Shown one piece after another: positions 4,982 through 39,179 of a stretch of DNA of 64,000 nt; within the stretch, counting starts at the first letter, position 1; each line of letters starts with the position of its first letter. The stretch is from assembly GCF_016458275.1 (NCBI RefSeq), contig NZ_JAEMHM010000002.1:1-64000 (forward strand), given 5' to 3'. Source of the DNA: Geomesophilobacter sediminis. GTDB lineage: Bacteria > Desulfobacterota > Desulfuromonadia > Geobacterales > Geobacteraceae. The notes under the pieces were generated by a model. That model was not told the DNA's origin and made no database searches. It was given only the letters and a program-made list of their open reading frames with translations. The position numbers and the translations under genes were made by a program.

Positions 4982-6364
4982 CTACTGCTTCTTCCTTCCC
5001 TCGGTCGTTTCGCCCTTGGCGATGCTCTCGGCGATCGCGTCGAGCACCTTGTTGAGGGCCCGCTGCAGCCCGCTGTCAGAGATGTTCAGCATCCCGGTCC
5101 AGACGGTCTTGCTGGTCTTCACGTCGAGAAGCTTCGCGGTCACCGCCACGCGGGCCACGTGCATCTTGGCGGAGCGTCCCTTGGAACCGTAGTCGAGCTC
5201 CCACTCCTGCAGGGTCTTCGGCTGCTGGGGCAAGGCGAGGTTCTCGGCCTTGAAGTAACCGACGTAGGCGTCGTAATCCTTCTGGTAGCGCGTCTTCTCC
5301 TTGGCGGAGATGGTCGGGGCGATGGTCACGTCCTCTTTCGCGGAGCTGTATTCGGTGATGCTGCCGATCAGGAAGTAGCGGGTCTTGAGCGGGTCGGCGA
5401 TGTTCTTGATCAGCTCGATTCCGGACAGCCGCTTGCGGGCGTCCAGACCCGCGGCGGGAGCCGGCACCGCGACGCTGCCGACGGCCTCCGTTGCCCCGGC
5501 GGCAACCGGAGCCGGAGCCGGTCCGTTCACGTCGGCAATCGCCTTCTCCAGATATTCGCGCTCCAGGACCGGGAAGCCCTTACGCTGCAGCTTCAGGATC
5601 AGCGAATCAGTGATGGTGGTCTGCACGTCCTTGGGCACCCCGTTGAAATCCATCACCGCCACGGCAGCCGCAGTCGGGATCTCCTCGTCCGGGTTCTTGA
5701 AGGCGTCGATGAAGACCGGCTTGTAGGCGACCGCATCGGCGTCGGGATACTCGATCTCCGGCGGGGCCGGGGCGGTCGGGAGCGGCTCCAGGTCGAAATG
5801 GAGCTCGACGTCGCTGCTGCTCGCCTCGGTGGCGATCATCTTGGGGCGGTACCCGTTCAGGCGCGCCAGGTAGTAACCCTTCTCCCAGGACGGCTTTTCC
5901 TCGGAGGCGGCGTCGGTCTTGGACTCCTTGTAGGGGGTCGGTCCGAGCTGCTTGGTGATGTTGTTCTTGTCGGTCCCGAACAGGATCATCGCCTCGCTCG
6001 GTTTGGAGGTGACGGTGAGCCGGATCGTGGTGATCGGCTGCATGCTGAAGGCGAGCTTGAAGCTCTGCGGCTTCCCGTTGGCCGGCGGCGCCGGCTGCAG
6101 CCGGGTCTCCGACTTGTACCCTTCTTTCTCCACGCGGTAGTACCCGGCGGGAAACTTGTCCGGCTCGAACTGGTCGGCAAAGGGGGTGGTCCCCAGCGCT
6201 ACCCACTGGTCCTCACCCTTGAGCGAGTAGGAAACCTTCGCGCCGGCCGGGGTTGAGATGATCTCGCGCTTCAAGGGATCCTTGCTGAACCAGCCGGCTG
6301 TGGCAACTGTCGGCAAAACAGAGCACAGGATCAGGACAATAAACAAGCGATACAGGTGATGCAT
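4982..6364 (-). CDS. PEGA-domain lipoprotein/secreted protein. N-terminal signal, PEGA-like motif (ISTPAGAKV), Pro/Ala-rich linker, C-terminal CsgG/LpoB-like region (weak)
   Basis: 460-aa ORF, GGAGG RBS 7 nt upstream of ATG, signal peptide MHHLYRLFIVLILCSVLPTVATAGW. Confidence 0.75.
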   Translation of the reverse strand: MHHLYRLFIVLILCSVLPTVATAGWFSKDPLKREIISTPAGAKVSYSLKGEDQWVALGTTPFADQFEPDKFPAGYYRVEKEGYKSETRLQPAPPANGKPQSFKLAFSMQPITTIRLTVTSKPSEAMILFGTDKNNITKQLGPTPYKESKTDAASEEKPSWEKGYYLARLNGYRPKMIATEASSSDVELHFDLEPLPTAPAPPEIEYPDADAVAYKPVFIDAFKNPDEEIPTAAAVAVMDFNGVPKDVQTTITDSLILKLQRKGFPVLEREYLEKAIADVNGPAPAPVAAGATEAVGSVAVPAPAAGLDARKRLSGIELIKNIADPLKTRYFLIGSITEYSSAKEDVTIAPTISAKEKTRYQKDYDAYVGYFKAENLALPQQPKTLQEWELDYGSKGRSAKMHVARVAVTAKLLDVKTSKTVWTGMLNISDSGLQRALNKVLDAIAESIAKGETTEGRKKQ

Positions 6365-11422: not shown

Positions 11423-11496
11423 AGCGAAGGTTAGGGACACTCAGGCTCACAAGATCCGTCGGCTGATGAAGGCCGTTACAAGCGATGAACCAGTTC

Positions 11497-11885
11497 GCGA
11501 GCAGGCATACCAGTCTGGCGAGCAGGCATACCAGTCTGGCGAGCAGGCATACCGGTCTGGCGAGCAGGCATACCGGTCTGGCGAGCAGGCATACCGGTCT
11601 GGCGAGCAGGCATACCAGTCTGGCGAGCAGGCATACCAGTCTGGCCAGCGGGCACACCAGTCTGGCGAGCAGGCATACCAATCTGGCGAGCAGGCATACC
11701 AGTCAGGCCGGGCAGGCATACCAGTCAGGCCGGGCAGGCATACCCGTCAGGCCGGGCAGGCATACCAGTCAGGCCGGGCATACCAGTCAGGCCTGGCATA
11801 CCAGTCTGGCCAGCGGACACACCAGTCTGGCGAGCGGGCATACCAGTTTGACGAGCAGGCATACAAGTCTGGCGAGGAGTCACGG
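11497..11885. repeat. ~18.5 copies of a 21-bp tandem repeat (consensus gagcaggcataccagtctggc; heptad EQAYQSG in one plus frame), degenerating toward the 3' end
   Basis: Direct reading; all six frames are open across the array because the period is a multiple of 3. Confidence 0.9.
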
Positions 11886-11911: not shown

Positions 11912-12202
11912 ATGCAATCAAAGATCAGTGCCCTAGGAAGAGAATGGCAGATGGTAGTGAAAGGCTTCTGGAAGATAGACGGAAACCACCTGATCATGAC
12001 CGCCACCGAATCCAGCAACCCCAGCATTTTACCGGTAGGCACCGTGACCGACGACGAGATCGTCACTATCACACCAATAGAAATGGTCTTGCTGGAAGAA
12101 GACGGCCCTCGGGAGGTAAGCGTGCGGGTGAGACCTTATAGAACAAGGCCTGTCAAATGTGTAGGCCAGGCCCCAAGGCCGTGTAGTTGTGTAGTTGTGT
12201 GA
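11912..12202 (+). CDS. Hypothetical small protein (96 aa), first ORF of the low-GC islet; weak start signals
   Basis: ORF in a low-GC segment: MQSKISALGREWQMVVKGFWKIDGNHLIMTATESSNPSILPVGTVTDDEIVTITPIEMVLLEEDG... Confidence 0.3.
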   Translation: MQSKISALGREWQMVVKGFWKIDGNHLIMTATESSNPSILPVGTVTDDEIVTITPIEMVLLEEDGPREVSVRVRPYRTRPVKCVGQAPRPCSCVVV

Positions 12203-12224
12203 TGAAAAAGGACAAGGAAAAGAA

Positions 12225-12521
12225 ATGGCAGGTGGACTTGGAACAATTGCACAATATCGAAATCTGATCGAAGCAGGACTTGCCAAGTCGAAACTTTAAG
12301 CTGCTGGAATCATATGCTTCATCGACAATGAGTACACTGTCGGTGCCAATTGGCTCTACTCGATTGCTTTGTGCAGAGTGAAGCTAAATGTACCTGAAGA
12401 AAATGCAGAAGAAGCCAAAGCAATAATTGAAGAAATTCTAGAAGTAATAACGACTGAAAATACAGAAGGAATGTTGCAGGAGTCAGCCTGCCATATCTGC
12501 GAGGGCTCTTCGTCGCCGTGA
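12225..12521 (+). pseudogene. DUF2007-like (putative signal-transducing protein family) gene interrupted by an in-frame TAA at 12297-12299
   Basis: MAGGLGTIAQYRNLIEAGLAKSKL-TAA-AAGIICFIDNEYTVGANWLYSIALCRVKLNVPEENAEEAKAIIEEIL read in a single frame. This matches the DUF2007 pattern (..LLEE.GI.aFVD.EY......L....vrvlVpeEdaeeAreIL), with the stop replacing a conserved Glu/Gln codon. Confidence 0.5.
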
Positions 12522-12581
12522 GTGGGTAATGGTATAGTCCATCATCCCAGACCTCCAGCTATGTATGAGGGGAGTGAACTA

Positions 12582-15032
12582 ATGATCAATCAGATCGACA
12601 TTGCCAGCTTTGGCAGCTTCAATGACCTGAACTGGAAGAAGAGCATTCGTGACGGCGGCAACAATGTTCAGGACTTCAAGCGCCTGAACATCCTTTATGG
12701 ACGCAACTATTCGGGGAAAACTACTCTTTCCCGAATCTTTCGTGCGCTGGAGACAGGGCGCATTCCGCTGAACTATGTGGGATCAACCTTCACCGTTCAT
12801 GGCGTCAAAGGAGATGTGACCCAAGCTGCCATTGCCGCTCATGGCTATGACATCCGGGTCTACAACCGTGATTTCGTCAGTGAAAACCTCAGCTTCCTGA
12901 TCAATCAGGCCATGGGCGGGGAAATAAAGACCTTCGCCATCGTCGGGGAGAAGAACAAGGAGATCGAGGATGAAATTGCTGCCATCCAAGCGAAACTTGG
13001 CAGCCTTGAGTCCAAGGCAGGTCTTCGGCACGATCGGGATGCAAAAAAGAAGGAAAGAGATCGGACCAAGAACAACCATAAAAACGCTTCTGATGCTCTG
13101 GAAGGCAAGCTTCGCTCTCATGCCAACGATAAGATCAAACAGAATCGCACCTATGGCCCAGCAGTCTACAACATTGAAAGCATCAAGAAGGACATCGGCA
13201 CCATAAAGAAGGCGGGATTCACGCCTCTAACCACTGACGAACAGGCCACCAAGGTCAGCCTCTTGAAGCAAGAGGCCCTTCCTGACATCACCGATACCGT
13301 TTCGATCAACCTAAAAATTGATTCAATCAAGACGGAGGCCCAGGAGCTTCTTTCAAGATCGATCAAACCGACGCAGGCAATTCAAGAGCTGTTGAGCGAG
13401 ACAGCTCTTCAAGCGTGGGTGAAGCAAGGCATCCCGCTGCACAAGGACAAACGCAATACATGCGCCTTCTGCCGTCAGGAACTGCCCCACGATATATGGC
13501 AGGTTCTGGACTCTCACTTCAGCAAGGAATCTTCGGATCTGGAGTCGTCCATCGATTCATGCCTGACATCAGTCAACGGCGAAATTCAGGCCATTGCTGG
13601 CTTCCTGACTTTGACCGGGGACAAGTTCTATGCCGAAGAAAAAGTGTCATTTGAAGCCAACAAGAAATCTCTTACCGAGTGCCTGAAGGTCTACAAACAA
13701 GACTTGGAGGCACTGAAGACCGCACTGGAGTCAAGGAAGAGTTCTCTCTTCCAGCCCGTTCCCATGCCGGCCCCTACGCACGATTCAGCGGCAATCCAGA
13801 AATGTGCCGACGAGATAAACGATCTGATTGTCAAGAACAATGGCCGCACCAACTCACTGGAAAAGGATAAAGGCTCCGCACGCGAGGCATTGCGACTCAC
13901 TGATGTGGCCTCCTTCATTGGTGACATCACCTACGACACGGAATTGACCCGCATTGCTGGTCTTAAAACAGACGCCGACACTGCCAACACGGCCTATACC
14001 GATGCCGAGGCTGAGATCCTCAAGCTTGAAGCGGATGTCACCCGCCTGCAAGGCCAACAGAAGGATGAACGCAAAGGTGCGGAGCGGGTCAATTCCTTGC
14101 TCAATCACTTCTTCGGTCACGACGGCATTAAGCTTGAAGCCAAGGAAAACGCGGAGAAAAATGCCGTCAAGTTTGAGATCACGCGGGATGGCAAATCAGC
14201 CTACAATTTGAGTGAAGGCGAATGCAGCCTGATAGCCTTTTGTTACTTCATAGCCAAGCTGGAAGAGCCTGACAGCAAGGGCAAAGATCTGATCATCTAC
14301 ATCGACGATCCGATCTCCAGTCTGGACGGGAACCACATCTTCTTCATGTTCAGCCTGATCGAGAGCCTGATAGCCAAGCCGTTCAAGAATGCGGACGGCT
14401 CCAACGGCTATCGTTACAGTCAGCTCTTCATCTCCACGCACAACCTGGATTTCCTGAAGTATCTAAAGCGGTTATCGGTACCCAAAAAGAAGGTGCCAGC
14501 GGGGGAAGGCAAGACCAAAAACGTGGATGATAATGAGCATTTCATGGTGGAGCGGAACGGCCCCACAAGCAACATCATGCTGATGCCGTCCTACCTGAAG
14601 GACTACATCACTGAGTTCAACTACCTCTTCCACCAAATCTACAAATGCAGGAACCAGGACGCCGCACAAGGCGCACATGAGCCGTTTTATGGCTTCGGGA
14701 ACAACCTTCGCAAGTTTCTAGAAGCCTTCTTGTTCTTCAAGTTCCCTTACCACGATGACAAGAACGATGCGTTTGAACGAATTAAGAAGTTCTTTGGCGA
14801 TGAAGACGCAACGGCAATCGCACTGGTGAACCGGCTCAACAATGAATTTTCTCACCTTGAGTCAATCCCAGATCGAGGGTTCAAGCCTGTAGAGATTCCA
14901 GAGATCGCCAAGGTAGCGAACTTCGTCTTGGACAAGATCTATGCGTCAGACCCTCATCAATACAATGCCCTGCTAAAGAGCATTGGAGAGCCTGCGAGGA
15001 CACCAGATCAGGGAGAAGGGGGCAGTCCTTAA
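12582..15032 (+). CDS. AAA_13-family ATPase with coiled-coil zinc hook and C-terminal nuclease-like domain: RloC/PrrC-like anticodon nuclease candidate (817 aa)
   Basis: GAGGGGAG RBS before MINQIDIASFGSF, Walker A GRNYSGKTT, long coiled-coil insert containing a CAFC zinc-hook-like CxxC, and an ABC signature LSEGECSL. It also has Walker B/D-loop LIIYIDDPISSLDGNH and a C-terminal NNLRKFLEAF (R-x3-E) motif with downstream His, resembling the PrrC/RloC ACNase triad. Gene GC is well below the genome level. Confidence 0.6.
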   Translation: MINQIDIASFGSFNDLNWKKSIRDGGNNVQDFKRLNILYGRNYSGKTTLSRIFRALETGRIPLNYVGSTFTVHGVKGDVTQAAIAAHGYDIRVYNRDFVSENLSFLINQAMGGEIKTFAIVGEKNKEIEDEIAAIQAKLGSLESKAGLRHDRDAKKKERDRTKNNHKNASDALEGKLRSHANDKIKQNRTYGPAVYNIESIKKDIGTIKKAGFTPLTTDEQATKVSLLKQEALPDITDTVSINLKIDSIKTEAQELLSRSIKPTQAIQELLSETALQAWVKQGIPLHKDKRNTCAFCRQELPHDIWQVLDSHFSKESSDLESSIDSCLTSVNGEIQAIAGFLTLTGDKFYAEEKVSFEANKKSLTECLKVYKQDLEALKTALESRKSSLFQPVPMPAPTHDSAAIQKCADEINDLIVKNNGRTNSLEKDKGSAREALRLTDVASFIGDITYDTELTRIAGLKTDADTANTAYTDAEAEILKLEADVTRLQGQQKDERKGAERVNSLLNHFFGHDGIKLEAKENAEKNAVKFEITRDGKSAYNLSEGECSLIAFCYFIAKLEEPDSKGKDLIIYIDDPISSLDGNHIFFMFSLIESLIAKPFKNADGSNGYRYSQLFISTHNLDFLKYLKRLSVPKKKVPAGEGKTKNVDDNEHFMVERNGPTSNIMLMPSYLKDYITEFNYLFHQIYKCRNQDAAQGAHEPFYGFGNNLRKFLEAFLFFKFPYHDDKNDAFERIKKFFGDEDATAIALVNRLNNEFSHLESIPDRGFKPVEIPEIAKVANFVLDKIYASDPHQYNALLKSIGEPARTPDQGEGGSP

Positions 15033-15169
15033 CACGGAGAGAGGCGACGGAGAAGTGGATTACTCCGTAAAGGAGAAGACAAATCCCAACAAGACGGGTA
15101 GAGCCGGACGGCTTCGCCGCCGCTCACCCGCCGAGCCGTTGAGCGACCAAAAATGATGAGGAGGGTCCT

Positions 15170-15613
15170 GTGAAGAAAAGATTCTGTTTGATTTTGCTTG
15201 GAGTTTTTATGGCTGGATGTACAGCCAATTATTACGTGAAACCAGACGATTTTATTAAGGAAGTGGCTGCCAATCAACAAAGGACCGAAAAATTTAACCT
15301 CGTTGGCACAGTCCCAGTTTTCTTTCCAATTCGATACAATGCGAACAACATTAGAAGGATACTGTGTAGGGACAAAAACGGGGAAAATGTCTATCTCATT
15401 CCAGACAGGAATACACAATTAGAAATAACCTCGAAATCAACAAAGGACGTTGTAAAGATGTATTTCGATACGGTCTTTTTCGAAGGCAGCAAATTAACGG
15501 GCCTGCGTTCAAGACTCGTTCCGGGCATGACAAGAGAAATTGAATTGTCGGATATCGATTCCATTGTAATTTATGCAGAGTTCCCACGCACACAAGCAGT
15601 GGACGCGAAATAG
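15170..15613 (+). CDS. Small lipoprotein (lipobox LAGC), low GC, hypothetical
   Basis: GTG start after GAGGAGGG RBS; MKKRFCLILLGVFMAGCTANYY. Confidence 0.65.
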   Translation: MKKRFCLILLGVFMAGCTANYYVKPDDFIKEVAANQQRTEKFNLVGTVPVFFPIRYNANNIRRILCRDKNGENVYLIPDRNTQLEITSKSTKDVVKMYFDTVFFEGSKLTGLRSRLVPGMTREIELSDIDSIVIYAEFPRTQAVDAK

Positions 15614-15792
15614 GGTACATGCCCAACCATAGAGATGCACCTGACCAAGAAGCCGTCAGGTGATCTCCTGACCCCGTTGGCGGGTAAGAAGGTAAAAAGG
15701 GGCCTGCTGAGGGCCAGGCCTACACATTTGACAAACAGCTGTCTAGAATATGACGGTTCTTATGCTTTTTGTTTAATCTTGGAGGGGGGAGC

Positions 15793-16929
15793 ATGCGCCA
15801 ATTCTTTCTGTTAGTCCCTTTCAGTCTGTTTTTGCTCTTTTCTGGTTGCGGTGATTCCGACTCCGTCACCAAACCGAGGCCTCCGGCCATCACTGCCCAG
15901 GCGGTCACTAAGACCGTCGCTGCCGGCGATACTCCTACCTTCACCGTCTCTCCTACCGGGACGGGGCCCTTCACCTACCAGTGGTTCTGGAACGGGGTGC
16001 GGGTTGATGGCAACGGTGCTTCCTACACCGCCCCGCCCATCGCTTCTTCCGACGATCAATCGACCATCTCCGTCACGGTGACCAACGACCTCGGTTCCGC
16101 CTCGGCTGCCGTTGCTACCTTGTCGGTTCCGGGCAGCCCGCGGCATCCGGAAATCAACGACCTGCGTTTCAAGGACCTGGATACCGTTCCGATGCTTGCA
16201 GCAGGCGGTGCCAGCACCAATGTCATGCGCGGTTCTTCGTCATACGAAAATTCCTTCGGGTTCCCGCTCGTGGTCGGTGATCCGGGACCCCAGGTGCCGA
16301 CCAATAATCCTGATCTCGCCAGCTGGTTTTATATCGTAGAGTCGATGCCCAATGGTGCCGTCGGGAGGACCAATACCTACCAGGTTGGTATACTCACCGA
16401 CTTGGCCGCCGATCTCGACGTTTTCTTTGATTCACAAACGGTCATAACGTCACTTGACGTTTCATCCGGGCAGAACGCATATGCAGTTCGTGCGGTGAAA
16501 ACGGCGGGTGCCGATCGCTACCCATCCTACGTCTCCGGGACCGCGTCTGCCGACGGCCTGCAGGCTGTCGCCACCGCGGAGGCTCAGGCGGGGAGGGTGG
16601 TGACGGCCGTCGCTTTGAGCGGCGGGATCGCCTACTACCTTGCTTACGGCAGGGAGGGTGACCTCCGGATATACGAATCCAAGGTGGTGACGGCTACCGT
16701 CGACTCTGTGAGTAACGCCGCGGCCGATCTGGCTGCACAGGGGTGGATCATCACCGCCGTTGGGGGAAATATTCGTGAAGGGTTCCTCCTGGTGGGAACG
16801 CGCGTTTCCGGTGACGCCACTCCACGTCCTTTCCAGGTTAAAAATACGCCTGCGTTGGAACGGGGATACACCCCGGTCGGTACGATCTACACCGGTGCTG
16901 TCTTACCAACCTACTTTTTCGAGCAGTAA
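15793..16929 (+). CDS. Lipoprotein with N-terminal Ig-like domain, hypothetical
   Basis: TTGGAGGGGGGAGC RBS, MRQFFLLVPFSLFLLFSGCGDS lipobox, Ig-like segment (PTFTVSPTGTGPFTYQWFWNGVRVDGNGASYT). Confidence 0.7.
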   Translation: MRQFFLLVPFSLFLLFSGCGDSDSVTKPRPPAITAQAVTKTVAAGDTPTFTVSPTGTGPFTYQWFWNGVRVDGNGASYTAPPIASSDDQSTISVTVTNDLGSASAAVATLSVPGSPRHPEINDLRFKDLDTVPMLAAGGASTNVMRGSSSYENSFGFPLVVGDPGPQVPTNNPDLASWFYIVESMPNGAVGRTNTYQVGILTDLAADLDVFFDSQTVITSLDVSSGQNAYAVRAVKTAGADRYPSYVSGTASADGLQAVATAEAQAGRVVTAVALSGGIAYYLAYGREGDLRIYESKVVTATVDSVSNAAADLAAQGWIITAVGGNIREGFLLVGTRVSGDATPRPFQVKNTPALERGYTPVGTIYTGAVLPTYFFEQ

Positions 16930-22049: not shown

Positions 22050-22412
22050 CTAACCGGCTTTCCTGATGTCATGTGCATCCAGGAACTCGTCCAGCGACAG
22101 TACCAGCGCCTGCGCCGAGTTGCCGTCCATGTTGATCAAAAGTTCGTTGATGCCGAGCATCTTGTCCGAAAGATAGATGTTGATGAATAGGTCCAGCCCG
22201 ATAGGATGCGGTTCCAGCTCGCCGTCGAGGAGCTGCGTATTTTTTAAAAATTCCACCGCCCGTTCTTTGGCCGACCAAACCGGCAGGGAGAATCCGGCCT
22301 GGTCCAGCTCCATGGCATAGATGTTCTCGTTTCTCCCCTTAACCACCCAAACCTGCCTGTTCGCCTGTACCTCTTGGCTGAATATGATCTGACCGATGAA
22401 GTCGATATTCAT
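22050..22412 (-). CDS. DUF2750-like hypothetical protein
   Basis: 120-aa ORF (MNIDFIGQIIFSQEVQANRQVWVVKGRNENIYAMELDQAGFSLPVWSAKERAVEFL). Confidence 0.55.
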   Translation of the reverse strand: MNIDFIGQIIFSQEVQANRQVWVVKGRNENIYAMELDQAGFSLPVWSAKERAVEFLKNTQLLDGELEPHPIGLDLFINIYLSDKMLGINELLINMDGNSAQALVLSLDEFLDAHDIRKAG

Positions 22413-22647
22413 GTCTTTGATCTCCTAGAACCGGCATTTCCGGTCGCCTCTAAGGGATCATTATATAGATCTAATAAAATTCCGAGAACCCCCTTTGTAT
22501 GCCCCCGGCTCGCAGCACCAACCGGTGGCCGACCCAAGTCAGGGCTGCCCAGGTCAGGAGGTGGACCCGTGCTGAAACGCCCTGAGTATCTTGCTGCGGG
22601 CCGGCTTGTTTTCAGGGGCGAAAAGCTGGATCGCCTTGCGGCCTTTC

Positions 22648-22966
22648 TGTGGATAAATTCCCTACAGCGGTAACAGAAATGGGACCGACAGTAACGAAAA
22701 GAGTTATTGATGTTAATGTTTGTGGTAATTAATCTTTGTGGGAGTTTGAAAGTATCCACTGTGCCTGTGGATAATTTGGCTATGCCTGTGGATATTTCAC
22801 AAGAATGCAACGATTTTCTGCGCATTTTAGCATCTTGCACAAGGATTAGGCGCATGGCTTAAGTGGTTGATATTGCGTGTCAAGAACCAAAAGTTTGCTA
22901 CCCGGCTTTTCCCATTTATCCGCAGTATCGCGGAAGAGACGGTAAACTGCGACGCTGAGTGGATAA
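22648..22966. promoter_or_regulatory. Cluster of DnaA-box-like 9-mers in an AT-rich ORF-free region: TGTGGATAA perfect at 22648-22656 and 22766-22774; TGTGGATAT at 22787-22795; TATCCACTG at 22752-22760; TTATCCGCA at 22916-22924; AGTGGATAA at 22958-22966
   Basis: Direct match to TTATCCACA/TGTGGATAA consensus. An adjacent AT-rich stretch (gttattgatgttaatgtttgtggtaattaatctttgtg, ~22700-22745) and a 21-bp-spaced direct repeat tgcctgtggata at 22763 and 22784. Confidence 0.5.
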
Positions 22967-23327
22967 GTGGGGGAATGGTACAACGCTAACTGCCTGGGAA
23001 TATTAGTGAATGTGTGCAAGCCTTAACGTAACGAGTGAGGGGGCTGCCCCTGTTTTAAAGCGGCTAAGTTGCCGAAATAATGGGTTAAAAAACGGGTGTT
23101 GTGGAGCACGGGAGACGGAAGTTTGACGTTTATGGTGTCCGGTCATTTCGCTGGGTTTTCCCTTTTCGTAGTGAGTTCGCACCGTTTGCGCGTAAGCGGG
23201 AAGAAACCCGGTGGGTTGCTTGCTTGGCTAACTGTCAGATAACACGAGTGTTTTGGCTAAAACAAACAGCAGGTTCTCTATCTCGTTGATTCTTTTTTGT
23301 TGATTTATCATTAGCCGTGTCACAATC

Positions 23328-23355
23328 TGTGATTTTCCTGTGACATTGGATTCCT
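23328..23355. promoter_or_regulatory. Inverted repeat TGTCACA-N14-TGTGACA (with nested TCACAatcTGTGA palindrome) just upstream of the PE-rich protein gene; candidate operator
   Basis: Sequence inspection. Related CTGTNACAG motifs occur at 8407 (GTCTGTGACAGAC), 8718 and twice at ~38013 and ~38034. Confidence 0.35.
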
Positions 23356-23466
23356 TGACCGGCGCGGTCGGAAAAATAGATGGTATTGCAGCGGGAAAAA
23401 GTACATATTGTTGCAAGACGGTTCGACCGTCACGAAATGCGCACCTTGAGTCGAGGTTTCCCCGTA

Positions 23467-24999
23467 ATGAGCAAGATCACCTGCCCGGACGACGCAACGA
23501 AGGTCGGCACGACACTTGATCGCCAAGATACCAAAGCAGGTCCCACCGCGGACCCGTTCGTGAAGGACAACGCCCAGCTTCTGGACTACTTGAGCGCGAT
23601 CCTCACCTCGCCCCAGCCCAAAATCAACCTGAACGACATCCCTTTCGACTACACCCCCGAAGAAACCACCCCGACCGGCAATCCCATTGTCGATGGCGTC
23701 ATCCACTTCGGTTCCCAGCAGACCCGCAGCGACAACCGGCGCCTGAAGGCGGAAAACGACGCCTTGAAGATGAAGGTCGCCCGTCTGACCGCCCAGCTCA
23801 ACGAGGCGGAGTGCACCCTCGATGCGGTGCTCTCTGAAAACGACGAGCTCAAGGTGATCGTCGCCCGGCTGCAGAGCCAGCTCGAAGCGCCCAGGGCGAT
23901 CCGGCACGCCGAGCGTGAGGTGGTGGTGCCGGCGGTTGCCGAGGAAATCGTCGAACTCGTGCCGGAAGCCGCTGCCGGGCCGATCGAACCGGTTCTCGAG
24001 GCGGCGGTACCCGCGCCGGAGGCGGTGGCCCTGGAAGAGCCGCTCGAACTGGTCGAGGAAGCTCCGGAGGCTGGGGAGGAGGTGCTGGAGCCCGACGCGG
24101 AGGAGCTTTTCCCGGAAACCTTCACGGTCGCCGAACTGATGCCCAAACTGATGCCCGAACCGGTGCCCGAGCCGGCCCGAGAGCCGGACCTTGCCGCCGA
24201 ACCAGCCCCGGCAGCCGGGGCTTTTGCCTTGGCTGCGGAAGTTCCAGAGCCGATCGTTGCCGTCGCTTCCGAGACCGTGCCGGAGTCGGGGGGGGATTTC
24301 TTTGCCCCCGGTGCGGCCCTGGCCGGGGCGCATTTCCGCTTCGAGAACCCGCCCACGGAGACGGAACCTGGAGATACCCGGCAAACCGCTGCCATCCACA
24401 TCGGGGGTGAGCCGATAGCCGCCGCCCCGATCTCGGTGCCGTTGCCCCCGGAAGCCGACGCGCGCCCGGCGGTCGAAGTAAAGATCGTAGCGGAAGCTCC
24501 GGCGCCGCGGGTACTGGTCCCCCCGCCGCCCCAGCCGGAACCAACGCCCGAACTGAAAGCAGAACCCAAACCCGAGCGCAAGCCCGAACCCAAACCGGAG
24601 CTCAAGCCAAAAGAGCCGGCTCCCCGACCGGCGCCCAAGCTGGTGGCCCCGATTCCACCCCGCCCCAAAAACCCCCGCGTGATCCGCATCGAGGATGCCC
24701 CGCCGGCGGAACCGGGTGCCAAGCCCGCCGCTCCCAAGCCGGTGTTCCAGCCTTTCATCGAGGAAAAGCCCGCTCCTGCGCCGGAAGAGGCCACGCCGGA
24801 ACCGGTGGTCCAGCCTGCAGCGACCGAGCCGGAGCCCCCGAGCCTCCAACTTCCCGACGGTGGCGAGGAGCCGGATATCGAGCCGGCACCGGTGACCAAG
24901 GTGGTCGCCAAAAAGCACATCGACAATTACCGGCAGATCCAGCAGGAAGCCGAAGCGGGTGAAGCCGGCGCCTCGCATGACATCATCGGTAAAGCATGA
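23467..24999 (+). CDS. Low-complexity Pro/Glu/Ala-rich protein with N-terminal globular and coiled-coil segment (hypothetical); start uncertain (ORF track starts at 23380)
   Basis: High GC3 in this frame. The N-terminal ~150 aa are non-repetitive with a coiled coil (RRLKAENDALKMKVARLTAQLNEAECTLDAVLSENDELKVIVARLQSQLEA). Competing antisense ORFs are Gly/Ser/Arg-rich artefacts. Confidence 0.5.
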   Translation: MSKITCPDDATKVGTTLDRQDTKAGPTADPFVKDNAQLLDYLSAILTSPQPKINLNDIPFDYTPEETTPTGNPIVDGVIHFGSQQTRSDNRRLKAENDALKMKVARLTAQLNEAECTLDAVLSENDELKVIVARLQSQLEAPRAIRHAEREVVVPAVAEEIVELVPEAAAGPIEPVLEAAVPAPEAVALEEPLELVEEAPEAGEEVLEPDAEELFPETFTVAELMPKLMPEPVPEPAREPDLAAEPAPAAGAFALAAEVPEPIVAVASETVPESGGDFFAPGAALAGAHFRFENPPTETEPGDTRQTAAIHIGGEPIAAAPISVPLPPEADARPAVEVKIVAEAPAPRVLVPPPPQPEPTPELKAEPKPERKPEPKPELKPKEPAPRPAPKLVAPIPPRPKNPRVIRIEDAPPAEPGAKPAAPKPVFQPFIEEKPAPAPEEATPEPVVQPAATEPEPPSLQLPDGGEEPDIEPAPVTKVVAKKHIDNYRQIQQEAEAGEAGASHDIIGKA

Positions 25000-25807: not shown

Positions 25808-25918
25808 CCCTTCGGTGAAACTTCTCTCGTTGAAAACACTCTCATGATCTGCTATTGGTAGGCAGCTTTGATTGCTGCAGCCGGTGACGTGACGCGATTC
25901 CAAACTGAGGAGGGGGTC

Positions 25919-27097
25919 ATGACGGACAGGTCGAGGAAGGGGATCGGACGGAGGGATTTTCTCAAGGTCGGGCTGGTCGGTACCACCTCGGCCCTGTTGG
26001 GAGGGCGCGCCCTGGCCGAGGCGGCGGAGAGCCTCGCCGCGACCAAGCCGGCGCCGTTTCCGGAACCGGTCTACCGGACCCTGGGACGGACCGGGCTCAA
26101 GGTCAGCGTAGTCAGCTTCGGCGCCATGCTCACCCCGGAGCCGGAAGTGATCCGGGTCGCCCTGGAGCACGGGGTGAACTACGTCGACACCGCCCGCAAG
26201 TACATGAGCGGCAAGAACGAGGAGATCGTGGCCCGCGCCATCAAGGGGCGCCGCGACAAGGTCTTCCTGGCGACCAAGACCCTCCCGGATTCCAAAAGCC
26301 GCGCCGACATCGTCCGCGACGTCGAGGCCAGCCTCAAGGCACTCGGCACCGACCACATCGACGTGATCCAGCTGCACAACCTCACCGAACGGGACCGCAT
26401 CTTCGTTCCCGAGACGCGGGAGGCGCTGCTCACCCTGAAAAAACAGGGGAAGGTGCGTTTCTTCGGCGTGACCACCCACAAAAATCAGGCCGAGGTGCTG
26501 AACGCCCTGGTGGATGACAAGGACCGCTTCTTCGACACCTGCCTGGTCGCCTACAACTTCAAGAGCGATCCGGTGGTAGGTGAGGCCATTGCCCGCGCCG
26601 CCGCGGCCGGGATCGGGATCGTCGCCATGAAAAGCCAGGCCGGCGGCTACCAGACCGACGCCCTGGGCAAGATCAGTCCTCATCAGGCCGCCCTGAAATG
26701 GGTGCTCCAGAATCCCCACGTCTCCAACGCCATCCCCGGCATCAAGGATATGTCCCAGCTTCGGGAAAACATCGCGGTCATGGGGATGTCCTTCAAGTAC
26801 GCCGACCGCAGGATTCTGGAGCGCTATGCCGAGGCGGTCGAACCTTTCTACTGCAGCTTCTGCGGCTCCTGCGAAAAGGGGTGCCCGCGCGGCGTGGAGA
26901 TCGGTACCGTCAACCGTGCCCTGATGTATGCCGAGGGGGGCTACCGCGATCACGCCCTGGCGCGGGCCACGTACGCCGAACTCTCCCCGTCGGCTAACGC
27001 CGCCTCTTGCGTCGACTGCGCCTCCTGCACCGCACGGTGCGTCAACGGCCTCGACATCCCCGTGAAAATGGACCGGGCGCGCCAGCTCCTGGGATAG
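25919..27097 (+). CDS. Tat-exported aldo/keto reductase with C-terminal Cys-rich (ferredoxin-like 2x CxxCxxC-type) extension
   Basis: GAGGAGGGGG RBS; twin-arginine signal (SRKGIGRRDFLKVGLVGTTSALLGGRALA); AKR core; CSFCGSCEKGCP and CVDCASCTARC motifs. Confidence 0.85.
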   Translation: MTDRSRKGIGRRDFLKVGLVGTTSALLGGRALAEAAESLAATKPAPFPEPVYRTLGRTGLKVSVVSFGAMLTPEPEVIRVALEHGVNYVDTARKYMSGKNEEIVARAIKGRRDKVFLATKTLPDSKSRADIVRDVEASLKALGTDHIDVIQLHNLTERDRIFVPETREALLTLKKQGKVRFFGVTTHKNQAEVLNALVDDKDRFFDTCLVAYNFKSDPVVGEAIARAAAAGIGIVAMKSQAGGYQTDALGKISPHQAALKWVLQNPHVSNAIPGIKDMSQLRENIAVMGMSFKYADRRILERYAEAVEPFYCSFCGSCEKGCPRGVEIGTVNRALMYAEGGYRDHALARATYAELSPSANAASCVDCASCTARCVNGLDIPVKMDRARQLLG

Positions 27098-27103
27098 GTG
27101 ATT

Positions 27104-28006
27104 ATGCGAATCCTTCCGAACCTGCTCCTACTGCTGCTTTTGATGGTTCCCGCTTTGGCGGCCGCGGCCGGGCCGACCGAGCTTCTCCCGGTGCCCGAGT
27201 GCGGACCCGACTGGAAGCTCGACGGCAAGACCGCCGCCTACGACAAGGAGAACCTTTCCGAGCATATCGACGGCGAGGCGGAGCTCTTCTTCCCGTACGG
27301 GTTCGAGTTCATGGCCTGCGCCCGGTTTAAGAAGGGGACGCGCTCCTTCGACCTCGAGGTCTACCGGATGGGCTCGCCCCTCGATGCCTACGGGATGTTC
27401 GCCAACTATCGTCCCGGTGAGGCCGCCCCCATCAGCACCGGGACCGAAGGGGCGGTGAGCGATGCCCAGCTCTTCTTCTACCAGGACCGTTATTTTGTCC
27501 GGCTCCAATCCACGGGCAATCCCGATGCCGGCAAGAGCGCCCTGTCCGCCTGCGCCCAAGCGGTTGCCAAGCGGCTGCCGATGGGGGGAGAGCCGCCCCG
27601 GGAGCTGCAGCTTCTAGCGATCCCCGAAGTGGTTGCCGGCAGCGTCCGTTACAGCGCGACGAGCCTGCTGGGTTACGACTTTTTCCCCAAGGGGATGATG
27701 GCCGACGCGCTGGTGGAGAAGGAACCGGCGCGGGTATTCGTTCTTTTCTGCGCCACCCCCGAGGCTGCGGCGCAGGCCCTTTCCGCGTACCGGGGCTACC
27801 TCAGGCAAAACGGGATCGAGCCTCCGGTGGAGGAAGAAGAGGGGGCCAAGGAGCTCCCGCTGATCACCCTGGATCCGCTGTACGGGCGGGTGCTCGTCCA
27901 GCAGGCGGGTCGCTACCTGGTGGGGATCGCCCGGGTGAAGGACGCCTCGGCGGGACTCCCGGTCCTGGAGAAGCTTAGGACGAAGGTGTTATCCAATAAA
28001 CAATGA
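27104..28006 (+). CDS. Secreted hypothetical protein
   Basis: Signal peptide MRILPNLLLLLLLMVPALAAAAG; ORF immediately follows AKR. Confidence 0.6.
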   Translation: MRILPNLLLLLLLMVPALAAAAGPTELLPVPECGPDWKLDGKTAAYDKENLSEHIDGEAELFFPYGFEFMACARFKKGTRSFDLEVYRMGSPLDAYGMFANYRPGEAAPISTGTEGAVSDAQLFFYQDRYFVRLQSTGNPDAGKSALSACAQAVAKRLPMGGEPPRELQLLAIPEVVAGSVRYSATSLLGYDFFPKGMMADALVEKEPARVFVLFCATPEAAAQALSAYRGYLRQNGIEPPVEEEEGAKELPLITLDPLYGRVLVQQAGRYLVGIARVKDASAGLPVLEKLRTKVLSNKQ

Positions 28007-38331: not shown

Positions 38332-38616
38332 TCAGGCGTGGGAGGCGTAGGAAACCATCTTCGCCGCAACTTCCATCGCCGGAACATGGTACTTCCCGGA
38401 CTCAATCAGCGCCTTGAGCTTCGCCAACCGCTCCGGGGAGGCTTCTTTGGGCGCCTCCGTTTCCGCGACCTTCAAGCTTTTCTTGGAAAGCTCCACCTTG
38501 TCGGTGGCCTTTTGTGCGTCGGCGCGCTGTGCTGCGGCGGCAGCCTCGTGTTTATCGGCTGCTACTGTCTGCACCGGCTGGACGTTGCTTCCTGCTGCGA
38601 TCTCTGCGACTTTCAT
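38332..38616 (-). CDS. flgM: Anti-sigma-28 factor FlgM (start moved to MKVAEIAAG with GGGAGGG RBS)
   Basis: C-terminal FlgM signature (ERLAKLKALIESGKYHVPAMEVAAKMV). Confidence 0.7.
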   Translation of the reverse strand: MKVAEIAAGSNVQPVQTVAADKHEAAAAAQRADAQKATDKVELSKKSLKVAETEAPKEASPERLAKLKALIESGKYHVPAMEVAAKMVSYASHA

Positions 38617-38798
38617 GACGGAATCCCTCCCCCTGCTGCCGGCTGCATCGTGCAGCCCCATCTGTGCGAATTATAAAGGTTGTCGCCACCGGCTGTCACC
38701 TGTTTCTTCCGGCTGATCCGTTTCGTGCTGCGGCGGCGGTTCCTGGTCCTTCATCCGCTGGGGGAGTATTCCGTTGGGCGCGGTCAGCGCCTGCGCCA

Positions 38799-39179
38799 TT
38801 AGGCTGAGCTTTCCCCCTGCTGGCCATCACCATGCAACACGTGTTCCCATTCGTGTTTCAATTTGTCCGGTTCCGGCGTGATGCCCTGCAAAAGAAGGTA
38901 GAGTCGTTCCTCTTCTTCCTCGGTCAGGAGGAACTTTACCCCCACCATCGAGTAGAAAGAGTGGATTACCTCGGCATACATAAGTAGCGGTTTTTCCGCG
39001 TCCTCGGGGTGGATCTCCACCGTGCAGCGATCGCCGGGGGTGACCATTAATCCTTCGTTGGCACTTACCAGTGCGCCTTGTAAAGAAATATTTCCGAGCC
39101 TCCCCTCGTAGGTGAGGTTGTTACAGGTCAAAAGGGCCGGGGCGGTATAGGTCATTCGGTGAAATCGCCGAAGCTCCAT
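38799..39179 (-). CDS. PilZ-domain protein (c-di-GMP binding)
   Basis: RxxxR (ELRRFHR) and N-x-S-x-x-G (GNISLQG) PilZ motifs. Confidence 0.65.
   Translation of the reverse strand: MELRRFHRMTYTAPALLTCNNLTYEGRLGNISLQGALVSANEGLMVTPGDRCTVEIHPEDAEKPLLMYAEVIHSFYSMVGVKFLLTEEEEERLYLLLQGITPEPDKLKHEWEHVLHGDGQQGESSA

Follow-up and report, generated by a model that had tools for sequence, protein, structure and literature searches.

What does a tight cluster of DnaA boxes do in a gene-free gap that lies apart from any replication gene? The question is raised by the first 64,000 nucleotides of contig NZ_JAEMHM010000002.1 of Geomesophilobacter sediminis (hereafter the window), where an intergenic gap holds several such boxes next to an AT-rich stretch. 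An earlier note on this DNA had offered three explanations, namely a secondary regulatory locus of the type of datA or of the DnaA-reactivating sequences (DARS), a remnant of an integrated replicon origin or, less likely, a chromosomal origin displaced from dnaA. The first of these fits best, as the core has the layout of DARS and its homologue lies between convergent genes, far from replication genes. The locus can tentatively be read as a chromosomal DnaA-assembly site that would not be an origin and whose core appears DARS-like. That it is a DnaA-regulatory locus of any kind, a datA-like brake included, has about an even chance from the sequence. That it is a true functional DARS, catalysing ADP-to-ATP exchange on DnaA in the Geobacteraceae (Desulfuromonadota) by means of a head-to-head pair, is rather doubtful.

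DnaA boxes in the gap

The DnaA-box cluster is real and non-coding. A pattern search finds 11 boxes with at most one mismatch in the window, five of which fall inside 319 bp of the gap. The null model consisted of dinucleotide-preserving shuffles of the local 336 bp, which control for the lower local GC content; under this model, a mean of 0.11 such boxes is expected, and none of 2000 shuffles of this 336-bp core reaches five. The two perfect boxes and four boxes with one or two mismatches that had been reported within about 320 bp were all found again at their positions, and their clustering exceeds that of composition-matched sequence.

The gap was also said to be a 940-bp region free of open reading frames (ORFs). 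It is indeed gene-free, but its limits are wider (1054 bp), and mechanical ORFs are present inside it. These have a GC3 of 0.40-0.50, as against 0.72-0.90 for the genes of the genome, and they gave no match in Pfam; likewise, neither Rfam families nor tRNAs were found in the gap or the window. The features of the gap are listed below, where L095 designates the homologous metagenomic sequence discussed in the next section and IHF the integration host factor.

22413-23466, no strand: gene-free non-coding gap, 1054 bp, 48% GC, between the divergent DUF2750 gene and an orphan gene
22648-22656, + strand: perfect DnaA box TGTGGATAA, outside the conserved module, missing from L095
22700-22745, no strand: AT-rich stretch, 30% GC, against 62% in the window and 48% in the gap
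22707-22988, + strand: conserved module, about 280 bp, homologous to a convergent intergenic region of L087/L095
22752-22760, - strand: box I, AGTGGATAC (GTATCCACT on the + strand), two mismatches at outer positions, TTATCCACC in L095, opposed to box II
22761-22765, no strand: 5-bp spacer GTGCC from box I to box II, identical in L095
22766-22774, + strand: box II, perfect DnaA box TGTGGATAA, kept in L095
22787-22795, + strand: box III, TGTGGATAT, one mismatch, identical in L095, same direction as box II
22833-22883, no strand: blocks shared with L095, TCTTGC (22833-22838), TAGGCG (22847-22852) and CGTGTCAA (22876-22883), in a moderately conserved spacer
22860-22872, - strand: perfect match TATCAACCACTTA to the IHF consensus WATCAANNNNTTR, 65 bp from box III
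22916-22924, - strand: DnaA box TGCGGATAA (read on the - strand), one mismatch, not conserved in L095
22958-22966 (feature 22958-22970), + strand: distal box IV, AGTGGATAA, one mismatch, within the 12-mer GTGGATAAGTGG, identical in L095

The direct repeat tgcctgtggata, at 22762 and 22783, had been described as iteron-like. The repeat and its 21-bp spacing are real, and they correspond to boxes II and III with similar flanks, but the iteron label does not hold: there are only two copies, each of them a DnaA box, and no Rep gene. The boxes at 22648 and 22916 together form a 12-nt inverted repeat. A perfect IHF consensus match arises in 3.4% of the shuffles, and no Fis consensus is present in the window copy of the module.

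Conservation of the module

The homologue, L087, is the same sequence as L095, L096 and L097 and comes from three metagenome samples. Local alignment of the module with L095 gives 61% identity over 304 columns, and blastn reports 133 bp at E = 5e-14. The block that contains boxes I to III is 91% identical (43 bp in blastn), whereas the rest of the alignment is at about 55%. The 44-bp core, which consists of the reversed box I, 5 bp, the perfect box II, 12 bp and box III, keeps all its spacings in L095, and the distance from box III to box IV is nearly the same (171 bp in the window, 169 bp in L095). For the boxes at 22648 and 22916, L095 has no counterpart. Such selective conservation of boxes is the pattern that would be expected under selection acting on them.

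In L095, the module sits in a 578-bp gap on which two genes converge with their 3' ends, a hybrid histidine kinase gene and the last gene of a type VI secretion system (T6SS) cluster, and four of the five DnaA boxes of this 22-kb locus are located in that gap. The best named-protein matches of the kinase are from Geomonas and other Geobacteraceae, and the homologue thus stems from a related organism, of lower GC content (56%). No synteny is shared between the window and L095 at ±10 kb, the 22 kb around the homologue contain no replication, mobile-element or phage genes, and dnaA did not turn up in any fetched locus. The module does not accompany orthologues of the L095 kinase. As tblastx scores between the window and L095 are alike in all frames, there is no coding signal in the module, and its consensus RNA folds are weak, with no stable or covarying structure. 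An internal duplication of about 245 bp, hinted at by three repeat families, was rejected, with alignment scores no better than those of shuffles.

The setting of the homologue bears directly on transcriptional control. DnaA is a known transcription factor at promoters that carry its boxes, and the boxes of the gap could be operators for DUF2750, for an operon of the orphan gene and Hsp20, or for an unannotated small RNA. The gap is divergent in the window, and a sigma-70-like site (TTGAAA-18-GATAAT, matching at 10 of 12 positions) overlaps boxes I and II. However, promoter-like sites are no more numerous than in shuffles, and the spacing of this one is 23 nt in L095 (counted from the sequence) instead of 18 nt. 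The boxes lie 236-554 bp from the start of DUF2750 and 500-820 bp from that of the orphan gene, closer DUF2750 homologues have no boxes upstream, and the lack of an Rfam match, of a stable or covarying fold and of a coding signal also tells against this explanation. Since, in L095, the genes on both sides end at the gap and none is left to be regulated, the module cannot serve there as the promoter of its neighbours. Control of transcription by DnaA is a decidedly unlikely function for this locus.

A core with DARS geometry

The DARS core of Escherichia coli is made of three boxes, of which I and II are opposed and 5 bp apart, and II and III are codirectional. The head-to-head pair is the site of ADP release, DARS1 has a perfect box II, and box III is essential for oligomer formation (PMC6868365, PMC11724364). 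DARS1 needs no protein activator (PMC11724364); DARS2 has essential IHF and Fis sites at fixed distances from its core.

As taken from the MG1655 genome, DARS1 reads TTATCCACT-ATTCC-TGTGGATAA-CCA-TGTGTATTA and DARS2 reads TTATCCCAG-CTTTC-TGTGGATAA. The core of the window, GTATCCACT-GTGCC-TGTGGATAA (22752-22774), has the same TATCCAC-N7-GTGGATA polarity and the same 5-bp spacer as both, and its box II is perfect, as in DARS1. An opposed pair at a 5-bp distance is absent from the remainder of the window and from 1.44 Mb of related loci; the sole other opposed pair, on the phage-like contig L089, is separated by 4 bp. Local alignment to DARS1 scores above shuffles, with z of about 3.7 for the window and about 6.5 for L095, a signal driven by the boxes. 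A BLAST search of the core against all E. coli genomes gave no match, the database being too large for so short a match.

If the locus works in a DARS-like manner, DnaA would bind the perfect box II first and recruit a protomer to the opposed box I across the 5-bp spacer, in a head-to-head contact. A further protomer would be recruited to box III through a head-to-tail contact, and the complex could be enlarged by the distal box IV as well as, in this genome, by the two extra boxes, while IHF may bend the DNA at 22860-22872. The head-to-head pair would loosen the bound ADP, leading to reloading with ATP. As a minimum role, DnaA would be sequestered by the locus, and either way the locus could tune the timing of initiation at the true origin, located elsewhere. 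Both the binding of DnaA and the effect on its nucleotide are predicted here from two sequences.

Several points weigh against the DARS-like reading. The conservation rests on a single comparison, with two independent copies known, and the placement outside the origin is judged from the genes of the 64-kb window and of the 22 kb around the homologue. Boxes II and III are separated by 12 bp here, as against 3 bp in DARS1 and DARS2 (read from MG1655), which puts box III on a different face of the helix, and the IHF site has no positional conservation in L095. Outside the boxes, identity to DARS amounts to 9-12 of 23 positions, compared with 5-9 for phage controls, which is marginal, and the part of the DARS1 alignment downstream of the core (CTTGCAC...GGCG) is not significant when taken alone. 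Opposed-pair spacings in phage box clusters are diverse, with a 5-bp gap in about 3.5% of cases (119 viral loci, among the matches listed), and the 5/12-bp layout recurs in three viral contigs (two distinct sequences), once inside a replication module. Geometry alone is not diagnostic, since phage and viral clusters show the same layout and many spacings. Lastly, reports of DARS are confined to E. coli-proximal beta- and gamma-proteobacteria (PMC5742627).

A cluster of this kind could also act as a brake on initiation, in the manner of datA or of the DnaA-box clusters (DBC) of Bacillus subtilis, by titrating DnaA or by IHF-aided hydrolysis of DnaA-ATP, the DARS-like spacing being then incidental. 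Non-origin box clusters restraining initiation are known in Bacillus and Streptomyces, and IHF is essential at datA (PMC5742627). The four to six high-affinity boxes in about 320 bp would suit such a role, as would the perfect IHF consensus between box III and the distal boxes. Nevertheless, the position of this consensus is not kept in L095, which has only a two-mismatch match displaced by about 20 bp, and the two extra boxes that add titration capacity are precisely the non-conserved ones. The strongest conservation concerns the opposed pair of boxes I and II at fixed spacing, which simple titration does not need. A datA-like or DBC-like brake is an unlikely explanation in its own right.

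The question of a chromosomal origin

Is the gap the chromosomal oriC of the lineage, displaced from dnaA? The AT-rich stretch previously placed at 22700-22745 was confirmed by measurement of its GC content. It contains a 16-bp tandem pair (22713-22744), and the boxes form an origin-like cluster that adjoins these 46 bp. Nine NAN triplets in a row (22704-22730, - strand), a length reached by 8 of 2000 shuffles, stand on the strand and side expected for DnaA-trios. In addition, genes diverge from the gap, and some 41 kb to its right are nearly all on the + strand.

Against this, the same position in L095 is neither AT-rich nor triplet-periodic, so that neither the stretch nor the triplet run is conserved in position. 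Under the search rule for the basal unwinding system (BUS), at least three NAN triplets should lie no more than 16 bp away from a box that has two mismatches or fewer (PMC8287927); the run, however, starts at a distance of 35 nt from box II, which is the closest good box of suitable orientation. The preferred trio, 5'-[T/A]A[G/A]-3', fits only three of the nine triplets, and the tandem boxes are separated by 12 bp, as against at most 3 bp in the BUS definition. The module therefore lacks the combination of DnaA-trio and adjacent unwinding element by which an oriC is recognized.

The surroundings point the same way. The genes flanking the L095 copy converge, and more than 9 kb of the T6SS cluster would run head-on to an outgoing fork; in the window, the + strand also carries about two thirds of the coding length left of the gap. 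No dnaA, dnaN, rep, par, integrase, transposase, phage, gid, rpmH or Mob gene is found among the genes of the 64-kb window, which extends to the whole stretch what had been noted of the immediate neighbours for dnaA, dnaN, parAB and rep. In G. sulfurreducens, the prs-rpsF-rplI cluster, which is present on the right here, is presumably separated from dnaA by several hundred kb. Boxes predicted in Desulfuromonas soudanensis adjoin dnaA (PMC4914508). Third-position GC skew in the window follows the coding strand on both sides of the gap, and skew consequently cannot decide the origin question at this scale. With neither origin-gene linkage in the 64-kb window or in the 22 kb around the homologue nor synteny between the two copies, and with the AT-rich stretch and the NAN run not conserved, the earlier framing as an origin-like module is not supported, and an oriC at this place is quite unlikely.

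Relation to mobile replicons

The module could instead derive from a plasmid, a phage or an integrative element, either as an origin recruited to a variable part of the chromosome or as the relic of one that remained there. When metagenomes were scanned for the exact pair TGCCTGTGGATA-N9-TGCCTGTGGATA in tandem, four contigs came up, and a viral scan gave two more. Five of these six are phage-like (L088, L089, L091, L092) or a Rep3 plasmid (L090) and have the boxes alone in common with the window; the sixth, L087, is the true homologue. Apart from the module and its homologue, the pair was thus seen only in these phage-like contigs and this plasmid, and viral contigs show the 5/12-bp three-box layout, in one case immediately upstream of a gene for a DnaB-like helicase. 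Furthermore, the module is non-syntenic in the two genomes, has 44% GC in hosts of 56-62% GC, and has, in the window, neighbours that are orphan or little-conserved genes. Origins of phages and plasmids often contain tandem boxes at a distance of 21 bp, and DnaA boxes have been documented in the origin of a Geobacter plasmid (PMC3403914).

Against a mobile origin, rep, par, integrase, transposase and phage genes are absent from the 64 kb and from the 22 kb of the homologue, and blastn of the gap against 72,556 plasmids and 50,697 phages gave no match. The matches in mobile elements share boxes and not flanks, and the search pattern itself required the shared bases. A decaying relic would not hold its boxes at 91% while the rest drifts to about 55%, and no terminal repeats were found at the ends of the homology. 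An iteron-type oriV would comprise at least three iterons and an adjacent Rep gene; the module has two copies of its repeat and no Rep, Par or Mob domain. A mobile origin or its relic is very unlikely.

A preference of phages for the 5/12-bp layout was considered and dropped, as spacings are diverse among the 119 viral loci listed, and no enrichment is claimed. The viral contigs with this layout carry three perfect DnaA boxes each (L104, 3627-3668; L103/L105, 4506-4547). Those of L104 are inside a 404-aa ORF directly upstream of the DnaB-like helicase gene, an arrangement that resembles a lambda-style origin located in an initiator gene. On the small Rep3 plasmid-like contig L090 (1150-1450), the region upstream of rep contains five to six iterons CCCCACANTAACCGGGAAYTC, with two DnaA boxes, at a distance of 21 bp, interposed between them; this is a textbook iteron origin, in contrast to the window.

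Genomic neighbourhood

The window is part of a draft contig of 392,602 bp. The gap is bordered by two divergent genes.

22050-22412, - strand: DUF2750 gene, left border of the gap
23467-24999, + strand: orphan gene, 510 aa, N-terminal coiled coil and long Pro/Glu/Ala-rich region, right border of the gap

To the left, DUF2750 and SseB are encoded on the - strand. To the right, nearly all genes are on the + strand, beginning after the orphan gene with Hsp20, an aldo-keto reductase/4Fe-4S gene, DUF6599, alpha-2-macroglobulin, PbpC and prs, and continuing with rplY, pth, ychF, rpsF, rpsR, rplI and rpsB. Amid these, between PbpC and prs, a FlgM-like anti-sigma-28 gene and a PilZ-domain gene (38332-39179) are on the - strand. 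The sole match of the orphan protein among 5.8 billion proteins is itself.

Other copies of the module were sought through the neighbouring genes. With DUF2750 as an anchor, the first genome scan was empty, and more distant homologues were non-syntenic and had no boxes upstream. The aldo-keto reductase anchor gave 78 loci, in which only the reductase-DUF6599 pair is conserved; neither the module nor a comparable box cluster is present in them, except in L061. This contig, from a Thermodesulfobacteriota metagenome-assembled genome, has three boxes with at most one mismatch in 400 bp (about 5229-5630). The pair itself (25868-28006 in the window; loci L007-L083) recurs as a two-gene cassette in about 75 genomes, which belong to the Geobacteraceae, Nitrospirota, Syntrophales and Syntrophorhabdales; its surroundings are all different. 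Exact-protein look-ups for wider context retrieved only a 1.5-kb Logan contig (L001), which stops 59 nt into the gap, and a look-up of ribosomal protein S18 gave no match.

Within the gap, a 13-nt inverted repeat (22505-22517 and 22592-22604, 92% complementary, 74 nt apart) is located in a GC-rich patch upstream of DUF2750, with fold z-scores of only -0.6 (+ strand) and -1.7 (- strand). Some 11 kb from the DnaA boxes, a 21-bp tandem array (11489-11876) comprises 18.7 copies with 89% matches and the consensus ACCAGTCTGGCGAGCAGGCAT; translated in one frame, it gives TSLASRH-type heptads, unlike a normal protein. Just to the right of the array is a low-GC island (12001-16000, 49-51% against 62% GC), in which the gene at 12522-15032 (+ strand) encodes an 836-aa AAA_13 protein that matches the PADLOC candidate PDC-S06 with 1086 bits and is probably a horizontally acquired defence gene. 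At the start of the window, tandem repeats at 1-1045 (267 bp, 3.9 copies) and 1965-2587 (258 bp, 2.4 copies) have 68-72% GC and a strong positive GC skew. The ORFs of this stretch have no Pfam match, and it looks like the gene of a large repeat-domain protein.

Significance

According to a 2026 review, the return of ADP-DnaA to the ATP form is not understood even for B. subtilis. The module offers a concrete 44-bp candidate substrate with the head-to-head geometry of DARS in the Geobacteraceae. If it proved to be a DARS, such elements would for the first time be known beyond the E. coli-proximal beta- and gamma-proteobacteria, and this one would have a different spacing between boxes II and III. 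The DARS principle would then reach another phylum, the 5-bp opposed pair would be essential and the position of box III free to vary, and DNA-catalysed recharging of the initiator would either be old and widely distributed or have been invented again with identical geometry. If it is not a DARS, the locus still illustrates that a strong box cluster with an AT-rich flank need not be oriC, which is a warning for automated origin finders in these genomes.

Comparison with known systems

An oriC with a basal unwinding system has a box cluster, a codirectional tandem pair, an adjacent AT-rich stretch and a NAN run, all of which are also seen in the window copy; the module differs in its wider spacing, both between the tandem boxes and from box to triplets. 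With iteron origins, such as those of L090 and of the G. lovleyi plasmid pSZ77 (oriR), the window shares two DnaA boxes 21 bp apart, a TGCC flank and a low-GC non-coding stretch, but the module has no Rep gene, iteron array, partition or mobilisation genes, nor any similarity beyond the boxes.

Like datA and the clusters of Bacillus subtilis and Streptomyces, the module consists of several high-affinity intergenic boxes away from dnaA, and in the window copy a possible IHF site is placed between them. Function at datA depends on a specific IHF site, whereas that of the module is not conserved. Moreover, none of these clusters is defined by a tightly spaced opposed pair, which is the conserved feature here.

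From DARS1 and DARS2, the module is set apart by the longer gap between boxes II and III, by weak similarity outside the boxes and by its host, a member of the Desulfuromonadota and not a beta- or gamma-proteobacterium; its ADP-release activity is a prediction only. Compared with DARS2, it has no Fis consensus, and its IHF site is not conserved. What it has in common with them, besides the polarity and spacing of the opposed pair, is a non-coding chromosomal core of three boxes, with a box III that is codirectional with box II and kept in L095, and, as in DARS2, further boxes and a possible IHF site that flank this core.

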